A stretch of DNA of 64,000 nt, taken from the NCBI RefSeq assembly GCF_030013595.1, contig NZ_CP122768.1; one strand, given 5' to 3'. The notes beneath the pieces are model-generated. The model did no database searches. It had not been told where the DNA came from and worked only from the letters and a program-made list of their open reading frames with translations. Origin of the DNA: Escherichia coli (GTDB lineage: Bacteria > Pseudomonadota > Gammaproteobacteria > Enterobacterales > Enterobacteriaceae). This document shows positions 2,808 to 18,597 of this stretch, piece by piece. The first letter of the stretch is position 1, and each line of letters begins with the position of its first letter. The position numbers and the translations under genes are program-made.

Positions 2808-6209
<3,402 letters not shown>

Positions 6210-6275: not shown

Positions 6276-6875
6276 ATGCGTAAACTTTATGCCGCCATTT
6301 TGTCCGCAGCCATTTGTCTGGCCGTATCCGGTGCGCCTGCATGGGCGTCTGAGCAGCAGGCCACGCTGAGCGTGGGGTATCTTCATGCCCGGACGAACGT
6401 TCCCGGCAGTGATGATCTGAACGGGATTAACGTGAAATACCGTTATGAGTTTACGGACACACTGGGGATGGTGACGTCATTCAGCTATGCAGGAGACAAG
6501 AATCGCCAGCTGACCCATTACAGCGATACCCGCTGGCATGAAGATTCCGTTCGTAACCGCTGGTTCAGCGTAATGGCGGGGCCGTCTGTGCGCGTGAATG
6601 AATGGTTCAGCGCGTATGCGATGGCGGGTGTGGCTTACAGCCGTGTGTCGACTTTCTCCGGGGATTATCTCCGCGTAACTGACAACAAGGGGAAAACGCA
6701 CGACGTGCTGACCGGAAGTGATGACGGTCGCCACAGCAACACGTCTCTGGCGTGGGGAGCTGGCGTGCAGTTTAACCCGACCGAATCCGTGGCCATTGAT
6801 ATTGCTTATGAAGGCTCCGGCAGTGGCGACTGGCGCACTGACGGTTTCATCGTGGGTGTCGGTTATAAGTTCTGA
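6276..6875 (+). CDS. lom: Outer membrane protein Lom (Ail/Lom/PagC family beta-barrel), prophage moron
   Basis: 199 aa with signal peptide (MRKLYAAILSAAICLAVSGAPAWA) and C-terminal ...GFIVGVGYKF; matches lambda Lom as recalled; flanked by terminators. Confidence 0.85.
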   Translation: MRKLYAAILSAAICLAVSGAPAWASEQQATLSVGYLHARTNVPGSDDLNGINVKYRYEFTDTLGMVTSFSYAGDKNRQLTHYSDTRWHEDSVRNRWFSVMAGPSVRVNEWFSAYAMAGVAYSRVSTFSGDYLRVTDNKGKTHDVLTGSDDGRHSNTSLAWGAGVQFNPTESVAIDIAYEGSGSGDWRTDGFIVGVGYKF

Positions 6876-6939: not shown

Positions 6940-9900
6940 ATGGCAGTAAAGATTTCAGGTGTACTGAAAGACGGCACAGGAAAACCGGTACAGAACTGCA
7001 CAATCCAGCTGAAAGCAAAACGTAACAGCACCACGGTGGTGGTGAACACGCTGGCCTCAGAAAATCCGGATGAAGCCGGGCGTTACAGCATGGACGTTGA
7101 GTACGGTCAGTACAGCGTTATTCTGTTGGTGGAAGGATTCCCGCCGTCACATGCCGGGACCATCACCGTGTATGAAGATTCCCGACCCGGTACGCTGAAT
7201 GATTTTCTCGGTGCCATGACGGAGGATGATGCCCGTCCGGAGGCACTGCGCCGTTTTGAACTGATGGTGGAAGAGGTGGCGCGTAACGCGTCCGCGGTGG
7301 CACAGAACACGGCAGCCGCGAAGAAGTCAGCCAGCGATGCCGGCACATCAGCCCGTGAGGCGGCAACCCATGCGACTGATGCTGCAGGCTCAGCACGCGC
7401 AGCCAGCACGTCAGCCGGACAGGCCGCGTCGTCGGCTCAGTCAGCGTCTTCCAGCGCAGGAACGGCATCAACAAAGGCCACTGAAGCGGAAAAAAGTGCT
7501 GCCGCTGCAGAGTCCTCAAAAAGCGCGGCGGCCACCAGTGCCGGTGCGGCGAAAACGTCAGAAACGAATGCCGCAGCGTCACAACAATCAGCAGCCACTT
7601 CTGCATCCACCGCGACTACGAAAGCGTCAGAAGCTGCCACCTCAGCCCGGGATGCGGCGGCCTCAAAAGAGGCAGCGAAATCATCAGAAACGAACGCATC
7701 CTCGAGCGCCAGTAGCGCAGCTTCCTCGGCAACGGCGGCAGGAAATTCCGCGAAGGCGGCAAAAACGTCAGAGACGAACGCCAGGTCTTCTGAAACGGCA
7801 GCGGGACAGAGCGCCTCGGCTGCGGCAGGCTCAAAAACAGCGGCTGCATCATCTGCCAGTGCAGCGTCAACAAGTGCCGGGCAGGCCTCAGCCAGTGCCA
7901 CCGCCGCCGGAAAATCGGCAGAAAGCGCCGCATCGTCTGCTTCAACAGCCACAACGAAGGCTGGCGAAGCCACTGAACAGGCCAGCGCAGCAGCGAGGTC
8001 TGCTTCCGCAGCGAAGACATCCGAAACGAACGCGAAAGCGTCGGAAACCAGCGCAGAATCCTCAAAAACGGCAGCCGCATCGTCCGCCAGTTCGGCAGTG
8101 TCATCGGCATCATCTGCGTCTGCTTCAAAAGATGAGGCGACCAGACAGGCGTCAGCAGCGAAGGGCAGCGCCACGACGGCATCCACGAAGGCGACAGAGG
8201 CAGCTGGCAGTGCGAGGGCAGCAGCTCAGAGCAAAAGTACGGCGGAATCTGCAGCAACGCGCGCTGAGACAGCGGCAAAACGGGCAGAGGATATTGCATC
8301 CGCCGTGGCGCTTGAGGATGCGAGCACGACGAAAAAGGGGATAGTACAGCTCAGCAGTGCGACCAACAGTACGTCTGAAACGCTGGCGGCAACGCCAAAG
8401 GCAGTAAAATCAGCCTATGACAATGCAGAGAAACGTCTGCAGAAAGACCAGAACGGCGCTGATATACCCGATAAGGGACGCTTCCTGAACAACATTAACG
8501 CGGTCAGTAAAACAGACTTTGCTGATAAGCGTGGTATGCGTTATGTGCGGGTTAACGCTCCTGCAGGTGCAACATCTGGAAAATATTACCCTGTTGTTGT
8601 TATGCGTTCTGCTGGCTCAGTAAGCGAACTGGCATCAAGGGTCATTATCACCACGGCAACGCGAACCGCAGGCGATCCGATGAATAACTGCGAGTTTAAC
8701 GGGTTTGTTATGCCTGGTGGCTGGACTGACAGGGGGCGTTATGCTTATGGAATGTTCTGGCAATATCAAAACAATGAACGAGCCATCCACTCAATAATGA
8801 TGAGTAATAAGGGCGATGATTTGCGCTCTGTGTTCTATGTTGATGGTGCTGCTTTCCCTGTTTTTGCGTTTATTGAAGATGGCCTGTCAATATCCGCACC
8901 TGGTGCTGATCTCGTTGTTAATGATACGACCTATAAGTTTGGGGCAACAAATCCAGCGACGGAATGTATCGCGGCGGACGTTATCCTTGATTTTAAGAGT
9001 GGCCGTGGTTTTTATGAGTCCCATTCGTTAATCGTTAACGATAACTTGTCGTGCAAAAAACTTTTTGCCACAGACGAAATTGTAGCGCGTGGTGGTAATC
9101 AGATTCGAATGATAGGTGGGGAGTATGGTGCATTATGGCGTAATGATGGCGCTAAAACTTACCTGCTGCTTACCAATCAAGGTGATGTTTATGGTGGCTG
9201 GAATACATTAAGACCGTTTGCTATTGATAACGCAACCGGCGAACTGGTTATTGGAACCAAACTGTCCGCAAGTCTGAACGGTAATGCATTAACAGCAACA
9301 AAGCTGCAAACGCCAAGACTGGTTTCTGGGGTTGAGTTTGATGGTTCCAGAGATATTACTTTAACCGCTGCGCATGTTGCTGCTTTTGCCAGAAGAGCAA
9401 CGGATACGTATGCCGATGCGGATGGGGGCGTTCCCTGGAATGCCGAATCAGGCGCTTACAATGTCACCCGCTCTGGCAACAGCTATATTCTGGTTAACTT
9501 CTATACCGGAGTCGGAAGTTGCCGGACATTGCAGATGAAGGCGCATTACAGAAATGGAGGTCTGTTCTACCGTTCCTCAAGAGATGGCTATGGTTTTGAG
9601 GAAGACTGGGCAGAAGTTTATACCTCGAAAAATCTTCCACCAGAAAGCTACCCAGTCGGCGCACCAATCCCGTGGCCATCAGATACCGTTCCGTCTGGTT
9701 ATGCCCTGATGCAGGGGCAGACTTTTGACAAATCTGCTTACCCGAAACTTGCAGCCGCTTATCCGTCAGGCGTGATCCCTGATATGCGTGGCTGGACGAT
9801 TAAGGGCAAACCTGCCAGTGGTCGGGCCGTATTGTCTCAGGAACAGGACGGCATTAAATCGCACACCCACAGCGCCAGCGTATCCAGTACGGATTTGGGG

Positions 9901-10293
9901 ACGAAAACCACATCGTCGTTTGATTACGGCACTAAATCCACGAATAACACCGGGGCGCATACGCACAGTGTGAGCGGTACAGCCGCAAGTGCCGGAAACC
10001 ATACTCATAGTGTCACAGGCGCATCAGCAGTCAGCCAGTGGTCACAAAATGGGTCAGTACATAAGGTAGTGTCTGCGGCCAGTGTGAATACAAGTGCTGC
10101 AGGAGCACACACTCATAGTGTCAGCGGCACAGCTGCATCTGCAGGTGCTCACGCACATACTGTCGGTATTGGTGCTCATACGCACTCTGTTGCGATTGGC
10201 TCACATGGACACACTATCACCGTTAACGCTGCTGGTAACGCGGAAAACACCGTCAAAAACATCGCATTTAACTACATTGTGAGGCTTGCATAA
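6940..10293 (+). CDS. stf: Side tail fibre protein (Stf family), ~1117 aa
   Basis: N-terminus [24 protein letters not shown] and C-terminus ...[31 protein letters not shown] match lambda Stf as recalled; ATG at 6940 rather than ORF-track GTG at 6934; contains A/S/T-rich repeat block and HxH repeats. Confidence 0.85.
7261..8341 (+). repeat. Degenerate tandem coding repeat (Ala/Ser/Thr-rich, recurring AAKTSETNA / SAAxSASxATTKAxEA units) inside stf
   Basis: Motif KTSETNA or KSSETNA recurs at least four times in the translated ORF; low-complexity A/S/T composition over ~360 aa. Confidence 0.6.
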
Positions 10294-10877
10294 TGGCATT
10301 CAGAATGAGTGAACAACCACGGACCATAAAAATTTATAATCTGCTGGCCGGAACTAATGAATTTATTGGTGAAGGTGATGCATATATTCCGCCTCATACA
10401 GGTCTGCCAGCAAACAGTACCGATATTGCACCGCCAGATATTCCGGCTGACTTTGTGGCTGTTTTCAACAGTGATGAGGCATCGTGGCATCTCGTTGAAG
10501 ACCATCGGGGTAAAACAGTTTATGACGTGGCATCAGGGGACGCGTTATTTATTTCTGAACTCGGTCCGTTACCGGAAAATGTTACCTGGTTATCGCCGGA
10601 AGGGGAATATCAGAAGTGGAACGGCACAGCCTGGGTGAAAGATGCAGAAGCAGAAAAACTATTCCGGATCCGGGAAGCGGAAGAAACAAAAAACAGCTTG
10701 ATGCAGGTAGCCAGTGAGCATATAGCGCCGCTTCAGGATGCTGTAGATCTGGAGATCGCAACGGAGGAAGAAAACTCGTTGCTGGAAGCCTGGAAGAAGT
10801 ATCGGGTGTTGCTGAACCGTGTTGATACATCAACTGCACCTGATATTGAGTGGCCGGAAGAACCAGACACAATGTAA
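10293..10877 (+). CDS. tfa: Tail fibre assembly protein Tfa
   Basis: 194 aa; [44 protein letters not shown]... matches lambda Tfa as recalled; start overlaps stf stop. Confidence 0.9.
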
Positions 10878-11034
10878 GCGAAAAAGAAAAACCGCAGACA
10901 CGACGTATGCAGGACGTGCTGCGGTTGGCTGGTGAACTTTCGATAGTGCGAGTATTGAATGATTTCCAGCCGTTATTGATTTTATATAACTGTAGTGGAG
11001 TTATTCAACACACAGGCAAAACGGAATAATCTGA

Positions 11035-11073
11035 GAAAAAAGCGTGCTTCGCCAATCAGGGGGGCGAAGCACG
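11035..11073 (-). terminator. Terminator-like hairpin (CGTGCTTCGCC...GGCGAAGCACG) with T-tract on the minus strand, in the tfa-ssrA junction
   Basis: 11-bp inverted repeat preceded on + strand by A6 (T6 on minus strand after the stem). Confidence 0.4.
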
Positions 11074-11243
11074 TCTGAATGACACCTGAAAATTTCCCGT
11101 CCGTTAAGTGTCCGCCCCGAGAGAAGTGGGGAACCATAACACCCTGTCGGGACGCAGAAAGAAACAACACAACTTGCAGGGATATTTCTCGATACTGCGT
11201 CAATGGTGGGGGATGTTAAATTATTACACTTAGTTACAAATAG

Positions 11244-11277
11244 AAAAGCCTCTGACTTCATAAGCAGAGGCTTTTCT
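11244..11277. terminator. Bidirectional terminator-like hairpin (AAAAGCCTCTG-loop-CAGAGGCTTTT) in the tfa-ssrA junction
   Basis: 11-bp inverted repeat flanked by A-run upstream and T-run downstream. Confidence 0.4.
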
Positions 11278-11395
11278 TAAATGCGCGTGCATTTTGCGTG
11301 TATATTTTTGTCTTTTTCTGGTCCGCTCACTGTCTGGTCAGTGTCCATAAGTGACTGTTTTTATAGTCTCTGTCTGGTTGTGGTCCTGTCAAAAG

Positions 11396-11758
11396 TGGTG
11401 GAGCTGGCGGGAGTTGAACCCGCGTCCGAAATTCCTACGTCCTCGGTACTACATGCTTAGTCAGTCTTTACATTCGCTTGCCAGCTGCGGACGGACACGC
11501 CACTAACAAACTAGCCTGATTAAGTTTTAACGCTTCAACCCCAGGCAGGGCTTCCACGCGATCTCTTTTGGGTTTGACCTCTCTTGATCCCCGTCCTAAG
11601 AGCGGAGGCTAGGGAGAGAGGGCTCTAAGCAGGTTATTAAGCTGCTAAAGCGTAGTTTTCGTCGTTTGCGACTATTTTTTGCGGCTTTTTACGAGGCCAA
11701 CCGCCCCTCGGCATGCACCTTGGGTTTCGCAAATCCCGTCGAATCCAGAATCAGCCCC
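11396..11758 (-). ncRNA. ssrA: tmRNA (SsrA, transfer-messenger RNA), 363 nt
   Basis: Reverse complement reads GGGGCTGATTCTGGATTCGACGGGATTTGCGAAACCCAAGGTGCATGCC...GGTTCAACTCCCGCCAGCTCCACCA, i.e. full-length E. coli tmRNA including encoded CCA. Confidence 0.95.
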
Positions 11759-11972: not shown

Positions 11973-12455
11973 TTAACGGTGGGCGTTTTTCATGATACGC
12001 GCTTTATCCACCTGCCATTCGCGCTCTTTGATATCTGAACGTTTATCGTGCTGTTTCTTACCTTTGGCGACGCCGATTTTCACTTTGCACCAGGCATTTT
12101 TCCAGTACAGGGAGAGCGCCACTACGGTATAGCCTTCTCGATTGACGCGACCGTACAATGAGTCCAGTTCGCGCTGGTTGAGAAGTAACTTGCGGGTACG
12201 GGTAGGATCGCACACCACATGCGTGGAGGCCACAGCCATTGGCGTGATGTTAGCGCCAAACAGAAATGCCTCTCCGTCACGCAGAAGGACGTAGCTGTCG
12301 CTGATATTGGCTTTTCCTGCGCGCAGGGATTTAACCTCCCAGCCTTGCAGGGCAAGTCCCGCCTCGAACTCTTCTTCGATAAAGTATTCGTGCCGGGCGC
12401 GCTTGTTAAGCGCGATGGTCGCTGAACCAGGTTTATGTGCTTTTTTCTTCGTCAT
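11973..12455 (-). CDS. smpB: SsrA-binding protein SmpB
   Basis: 160 aa, [45 protein letters not shown]...; adjacent to and co-oriented with ssrA. Confidence 0.95.
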
Positions 12456-18553: not shown

Positions 18554-18597
18554 CGTAGTAGTAGAAATGTGTTCCAGGGGAAACTCCTTTTCTGGGT

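Follow-up and report, generated by a model that had tools for sequence, protein, structure and literature searches.

What does a lambda-like prophage carry at its tail-fibre end when only a few hundred base pairs separate its last late gene from the host chromosome? This question is raised by the left 11.4 kb of a 64,000-nucleotide stretch of Escherichia coli DNA (hereafter, the window), which is the late end of such a prophage, with all genes on the plus strand and in the order minor tail genes, J (2811-6209), lom (6276-6875), stf (to 10293) and tfa. The tail fibre assembly gene tfa (10293-10877, plus strand; a 194-aa ORF) is the last late gene and forms the left edge of the interval studied here; in an identical sequence of the genome ETEC1732 it is annotated as 'tail fiber assembly protein'. 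The initial annotation had placed about 520 bp between tfa and the host junction, and we can confirm this, as 518 bp (10878-11395) lie between the tfa stop, which ends at 10877, and the mature 3' end of ssrA at 11396. Our answer, which we hold to be very probable, is that the interval represents the right, attR-side terminus of a roughly 41-kb lambda-like prophage in the 3' end of ssrA, that it has no gene cargo and that it contains three hairpin modules which would stop minus-strand transcription. It is free of genes but not featureless, since it holds a predicted attP arm and three predicted leftward terminators, one of them in a widely conserved element of about 95 nt.

The integration target, ssrA (11396-11758, minus strand), encodes tmRNA and was called both by ARAGORN, with the tag peptide ANDENYALAA, and by Rfam (RF00023, 292.8 bits). 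It is transcribed toward the prophage, and smpB (11973-12455) lies beyond it. In ETEC1732, the 27-bp sequence TGGTGGAGCTGGCGGGAGTTGAACCCG is an exact direct repeat at the two ends of the prophage, and we therefore take the corresponding 11396-11422 of the window, which is the 3' end of ssrA, as the att core. The predicted recombination joint is somewhere within this core, inside the last 27 nt of ssrA. The prophage of ETEC1732 is about 41 kb long, with a tyrosine integrase gene at its far end, and its gene set is complete between int and tfa. Four pig ETEC genomes, among them ETEC1732, match the 518 bp at 100% identity; the flanks in ETEC1732 are only 96-98% identical to those of the window, and the integrase and attL evidence used here comes from ETEC1732 and not from the window's own genome. 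Across 5,426 complete E. coli genomes, at least 80% of the interval is found in one piece in only eight.

Two further features of this neighbourhood were observed. In ETEC1732 the ssrA site (locus L011 2808-9303, outside the window) is occupied in tandem, with the lambdoid prophage lying between ssrA and a P4-like satellite island that has a polarity suppression protein and its own integrase; a copy of the 27-bp core lies between the two integrase genes. In the window, stf (6940-10293, plus strand) has a long, repetitive N-terminal half rich in Ala, Ser and Thr and differs by indels from the ETEC1732 allele (about 1117-1119 aa versus 1137 aa, at 96% DNA identity), and the DNA just downstream is identical.

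Three hairpins in the interval show the features of intrinsic terminators, namely a G+C-rich stem-loop with a U-rich tract directly 3' of the stem. Two of them had been described before as terminator-like, and both are real; the third, at 10891-10925, had been overlooked. This third hairpin, T3 (10880-10925, minus strand; -17.8 kcal/mol), has its stem at 10891-10925 and its U-tract at 10880-10890, so that it abuts the tfa stop. Its minus-strand tail, TTTTCTTTTT, reaches the tfa stop codon, and T occupies eight of the first nine nucleotides past the stem on the minus strand as against two on the plus strand. T2 (11036-11073, minus strand; about -14 to -14.5 kcal/mol) has arms at 11043-11053 and 11063-11073 that form 11 bp, followed by a U-tract at 11036-11041 (tail C+TTTTTT), and its T-run is found on the minus strand only. 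T1 (11242-11277; -16.8 kcal/mol), located 119-154 nt from the 3' end of ssrA, is a 13-nt perfect inverted repeat (11242-11254 and 11265-11277) with T-runs on both strands (TTTTCTATTT on the minus strand and TTTTCTT on the plus strand), and is predicted to be a bidirectional terminator; it alone of the three has a plus-strand U-tract. In an alignment of four ssrA phages the stem sequence of T1 varies while its pairing is kept and its T-run is invariant. The fold z-score was -4.8 for 10880-10985 and -5.4 for 11230-11395, whereas 11026-11195 reached only -1.6. A simple terminator scanner reported no more sites than in shuffles and called none of T1, T2 and T3, owing to its limits on loop size and its exclusion of bulges. 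From these features of the DNA, we infer a terminator function for all three.

Such terminators would have work to do at this site. In the lysogen, the only obvious source of minus-strand transcription would be ssrA, a gene that ranks among the most strongly transcribed. Integration would have severed ssrA from its own downstream sequence, which in ETEC1732 is found displaced at attL and has a hairpin and a T-run shortly after the core. T1 would then take over as the terminator, ending the strongly expressed ssrA transcript as it enters phage DNA, with T2 and T3 as backups; T3, with its hairpin and U-tract, would end leftward transcripts right at the tfa stop codon. T1 could also end the rightward late transcript, as it would be the sole plus-strand terminator past tfa. 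In the free phage, the minus strand would carry the int-xis transcripts across attP, and T1 would lie just past attP and downstream of int, at the place taken by tI/sib in lambda and HK97. The three predicted terminators would thereby shield the tail-fibre genes from antisense read-through, whether out of ssrA in the lysogen or out of int in the free phage. A phage that inserts behind a gene as highly expressed as ssrA must bring its own terminator, and here one is predicted within about 150 nt.

The part of the interval next to the core (11221-11395) is best described as the attP arm, on the side away from int, of an ssrA-integrating integrase module, and is 76-83% identical to the corresponding DNA of LMessi, PhiR12_1-5, phiES15 and CP-1639. 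In the free phage LMessi the arm (83% identical) lies directly beside the core and int, between them and the tail-fibre side, and the integrase of LMessi is 88% identical to that of the ETEC1732 prophage. Two aspects expected of an attP arm are seen: the contiguous core equals the 3' end of the target gene and is duplicated at both prophage ends, and LMessi, a free phage whose integrase is related, has a homologous arm beside its core and int. The arm contains two 12-nt direct repeats, TC(A/T)CTGTCTGGT, 40 nt apart (11327-11378, plus strand), a pair that may also be written as TCNCTGTCTGGT repeats; the repeat core, CCAGACAG in the minus sense, is invariant in all four ssrA phages, and the two repeats are candidate arm-type sites for the integrase. 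Furthermore, a 26-nt motif, GTGCATTTTGCGTGTATATTTTTGTC (11287-11312, plus strand), recurs on the int-side arm at attL, where the attL and attR flanks of ETEC1732 match at 85%, and is conserved among ssrA phages. It is a possible protein-binding site.

At the other end of the interval lies a conserved non-coding element of about 95 nt, here called element A (10886-10985, minus strand), which consists of a near-invariant 5' half of about 55 nt followed by hairpin T3. We found it at 18,569 places in 5,411 of the 5,426 complete E. coli genomes, or about three copies per genome. It occurs in the b region of lambda (NC_001416, 24162-24259), between ea47 and ea31, and also in HK97, next to the annotated sib, and in mEp460, phi80 and CP-1639. 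Most of the 83 distinct variants in viral contigs begin right after the stop codon of dinI, an SOS-induced gene. Their 5' 55 nt or so are nearly invariant, and the 3' hairpin varies. RNAalifold, applied to a MAFFT alignment of the element, did not recover this hairpin because of indels in the loop, and per-sequence folds with a count of arm matching were used instead. Arms matched their own partners only modestly better than those of other variants (7.12 versus 6.63 of 8), so that the claim of covariation rests on the individual compensatory variants, which are CAG/CTG, CGG/CCG, CAA/TTG, CCG/CGG and TGG/CTA. A good U-tract follows the hairpin in roughly half of the variants, and that of the window copy is very good.

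Element A is also present in the chromosome of K-12, in the spacer between ykgJ and ecpE (NC_000913, about 304228-304309). A decayed dinI-like sequence lies beside this copy (locus L135 6184-6495), which points to the remnant of an old prophage end that became fixed in the E. coli chromosome. A fixed remnant of this kind may account for the presence of at least one copy of element A in nearly every genome. The 3' region of the chromosomal dinI of K-12 is without element A, and the position near 3.009 Mb in a derivative of K-12 has no counterpart in MG1655.

Several public annotations run across element A. In phage HK633 (JQ086377, 20680-20760) it is labelled 'attP' on account of its resemblance to the ykgJ-yagV spacer of K-12, and PGAP has placed short ORFs across it, called 'capsid protein' in O157 MB41-1 and 'hypothetical protein' in TUM1881 (loci L007 2878-3045 and L004 2866-3045). 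All three annotations look wrong. A prophage element of about 95 nt that occurs in virtually every E. coli genome is almost never annotated and is sometimes misannotated, which is worth correcting and perhaps merits a look at the transcript level. A separate point concerns the IS009 family (RF02111), which matches 10636-10834 (plus strand, 213.9 bits), entirely inside the coding sequence of tfa; this 'small RNA' family seems to represent the conserved 3' portion of genes for tail fibre assembly.

One alternative is that the interval does carry cargo, in the form of RNA. Element A could be an RNA of about 90 nt that starts from a promoter-like site at 11008-10979 and ends at T3, and a further RNA of about 150 nt could be formed by T2 and the rare sequence preceding it (piece C, described below); either might be a small regulatory RNA or be derived from a 3'-UTR. 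A stem-loop together with a U-tailed terminator is the usual shape of Hfq-binding RNAs, and element A has a 5' stem-loop and a terminator with a U-tail, with a fold z-score of -4.77. Its unpaired 5' half has stayed almost invariant over the 83 variants while the hairpin varies, and the element is as widespread in E. coli as described above and is present in lambda. Promoter-like hexamers (TTGAAT, then TATAAA/TAAAAT; 10979-11008, minus strand; 9 of 12 matches in a consensus scan) lie at the right distance upstream and point into it. Convergent small RNAs at prophage moron sites are, moreover, documented in EHEC (PMC4104026).

However, promoter-like sites in the interval are no more numerous than in shuffles, and in most phages element A is simply the sequence after the dinI stop, without a good -35 box. 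The changes in its stem 1 are one-sided only and give no compensatory support. Piece C plus T2 shows no significant structure (z -1.56) and is rare, occurring in 86 genomes. An Rfam 15 scan of 10878-11395 gave no match at E<=1, the only families nearby being tmRNA and the IS009 match inside tfa. As for a conserved sRNA homologue in the interval, which would have counted against the earlier view, no Rfam family matches, but a conserved non-coding element does map here. Furthermore, element A could be matched to no prophage RNA in those parts of the published EHEC and EPEC Hfq CRAC and RIL-seq lists that were available to us. On these grounds an RNA cargo is unlikely.

Published prophage RNAs were also compared individually. 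PasB, a small RNA of EPEC prophages with IS009-enriched flanks, was considered and set aside, as it lies between gpI and gpJ in E2348/69 and differs in sequence from element A. The northern-probe sequences for EcOnc02-08 of O157 Sakai, as far as the source gives them, do not occur in the interval, and the right end of Sakai Sp5 (EcOnc43/31), the one EcOnc locus compared among 63 peaks, has no copy of element A. A search of the literature on ykgS, ykgJ and dinI and on small RNAs near tail fibre assembly genes found nothing relevant.

Many phage copies of element A are without a good U-tract, and the conservation of its 5' 55 nt exceeds what a terminator needs; on both counts the element may do something else. 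It could be a regulatory RNA from the 3' end of dinI, a processing or stability signal, or a recombination joint at which tail-fibre and cargo modules are swapped. That lambda-like phages have in element A a functional RNA or DNA signal which has gone unrecognised, and not just a terminator, is a tentative and rather unlikely proposal that draws on its near-universal presence in E. coli, its occurrence in lambda and HK97 and its lack of an Rfam family.

Between element A and the attP arm lies a non-coding cassette of 238 bp (10983-11220, minus strand), which occupies the slot of dinI and its promoter in related ssrA phages. We delimited the parts of this mosaic by BLAST against phages and E. 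coli genomes and then by local alignment to the loci fetched. CP-1639, which is also integrated at ssrA, aligns to 10889-10982 and to 11209-11420 and has a dinI cassette of 344 bp between the two, where the window has 226-238 bp of unrelated sequence. The alignments of PhiR12_1 and LMessi begin at 11221, and dinI or a dinI-like ORF lies just before that point; in LMessi the slot contains an unannotated minus-strand ORF with two LexA-type boxes upstream. Relative to its closest relatives, which carry either dinI (CP-1639, PhiR12_1) or a LexA-boxed ORF (LMessi), the slot in the window is, as judged by these alignments, 'empty'. In LMessi itself (locus L136 2123-2713), a plus-strand 'hypothetical protein' has been annotated over the dinI-like ORF and part of the attP arm, and this is probably a mis-call.

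The cassette is made up of a rare piece of 110 nt, T2 and a spacer of 50 nt. The rare piece, piece C (about 110 nt, 11093-11205), is non-coding and lies upstream of T2 in the minus sense. It is found at 90-100% identity in 86 of the 5,426 genomes, is never annotated, and is common to prophages at ompW and serT, with a 1-nt indel in one homologue; a scan of viral contigs gave one locus only. The T2 module (10985-11092) is present in 943 genomes. In other prophages the T2 hairpin lies about 170 nt past a tRNA-Ser att core, and so again just downstream of the attachment site in the sense of int. The block 10800-11205, which reaches from the 3' end of tfa across T2 to the 110-nt piece, matches prophages at ompW and serT at 94-97% identity, which indicates a portable 'tail-fibre end' unit that has been joined to different att modules.

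These comparisons bear on a second alternative, namely that the short interval is a scar of decay, left in a degenerating cryptic prophage by the deletion of a larger b region or a dinI cassette. Relatives integrated here do have dinI in exactly this slot, and the full 518-bp arrangement is as rare as noted above (8 of 5,426 genomes). However, the prophage of ETEC1732 is complete from int to tfa over its 41 kb, and viable free phages are equally compact at this end (416 bp in HK97 and about 600 bp in LMessi). The slot also holds a different sequence of 238 bp, common to the ompW and serT prophages, which argues for a swap of modules rather than a simple deletion, and there is no remnant of dinI. 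A decay scar is, in our view, very unlikely.

It remains to consider protein-coding cargo. Two overlapping minus-strand ORFs of 73 and 86 aa had been described as the only ORFs of the interval and as spurious. Both exist, but they are not the only ones, as four more on the plus strand touch the interval (59, 46, 41 and 59 aa). The verdict that they are spurious nevertheless holds up well. None of the six ORFs has a match in Pfam or PHROGs at E<=0.1. In shuffles of the 518 bp with the same composition, an ORF of at least 86 aa arises in 8% and one of at least 73 aa in 21%. Both minus-strand ORFs cross the loop of T2, which varies in length by 1-2 nt among close copies, and the TUM1881 homologue has an additional 1-nt deletion within the region of the two ORFs; the start of the 86-aa ORF lies within the stem of T1. 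One 59-aa plus-strand ORF spans the loop of T3, where most variants have one extra nucleotide, which turns ATG CAG GAC GTG... into ATG CAA GAA CGT GCT GCG GTT GGC TGG TGA and so brings in a stop after nine codons. We regard all short ORFs of the interval as spurious. That a small protein is encoded here, by the 73-aa or the 86-aa minus-strand ORF or by the 59-aa plus-strand ORF, is scarcely credible: the ORFs are present and PGAP has annotated equivalents of the 59-aa ORF in TUM1881 and O157 MB41-1, but their lengths are within chance (P of 0.08 and 0.21 for 86 and 73 aa), they match no family, the frames are broken in homologues on both strands, and one start codon is part of a hairpin.

Nor is there a sign of the gene that relatives carry. 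The best tblastn hit for dinI in the interval (E 0.46) is on the wrong strand and not credible, there is no dinI in the whole window at E<=1e-3, and the interval has no LexA box, its sole CTG-N10-CAG being the T1 hairpin itself. The earlier claim that the stretch from tfa to the host junction contains neither a protein-coding moron nor a defence gene is therefore upheld by the lack of Pfam and PHROGs matches, the chance lengths and indels of the ORFs and the absence of a dinI remnant. A moron, in the sense attributed to Juhala et al. 2000, is reportedly an additional gene that is set between conserved genes of a phage and has a promoter and a terminator of its own. The interval has terminator hairpins, its promoter-like sites are no commoner than in shuffles, and it has no protein-coding gene. 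Elsewhere in the prophage, lom (6276-6875, plus strand) is a classic moron that encodes an outer-membrane protein of the Ail/Lom type and lies, as in lambda, between J and stf, and the ETEC1732 prophage also has a porin gene, OmpC-like, and a DNA methyltransferase gene after Q.

This analysis corrects the picture of the prophage boundary, which now comprises an att core, an att arm and three predicted leftward terminators, and it shows that the tail-fibre end of this ssrA prophage is free of virulence, defence and SOS genes, whereas relatives have dinI, nleG, espK or cdt at that junction. The contrast with lambda that had been drawn is valid, as 5.2 kb with ea47, ea31 and ea59 separate tfa from the attP core in lambda. 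However, since HK97 has the same compact layout, an end without b-region genes was already known, and the finding is correct but ordinary. In HK97, and in phages of the HK022 type, tfa is likewise followed by element A (94% identical in HK97), a leftward hairpin by attP, the att core and int. Here 518 bp lie between tfa and the core, as compared with 416 bp in HK97. The two differ in that HK97 has the lambda att core and a lambda-type sib, whereas the prophage in the window has the ssrA 3' end as its core, a T1 of unrelated sequence and an extra 238-bp cassette with a further terminator. BLAST of the interval against the lambda and HK97 loci aligned tfa and element A only, with no homology to sib. 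Similarly to tI/sib of lambda, T1 forms a hairpin whose U-tract is on the int-sense strand, lies about 120-150 nt past the core and would be separated from int by integration; by contrast, T1 is predicted to be bidirectional and, in the lysogen, follows a host RNA gene.

The dinI morons of CP-1639, PhiR12_1, mEp460 and phage cdtI share flanks with the interval, namely the att arm in the ssrA phages and element A in CP-1639 and in mEp460, where dinI abuts it. Here, however, the dinI ORF, its promoter and the LexA boxes are absent without a remnant, and a non-coding cassette is found instead. The block formed by T2, the spacer and element A is also the distal edge of the cargo in prophages with virulence genes, such as those of O157 (nleG), SLK172 (espK/espO) and IHE3034 (cdtABC). 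In contrast to these exchangeable effector loci, tfa here directly abuts the block and nothing is inserted. Finally, as with other integrators at the 3' end of ssrA (CP4-57, P4-like islands and phage LLS), a phage-borne copy of the ssrA 3' end restores the gene; the att core is 29 bp in phage LLS (PMC12315714) and 27 bp here. Unlike in those elements, the complete ssrA in the window adjoins the tail-fibre end of the prophage and not int, and the integrase is of the LMessi/CP-1639 type.
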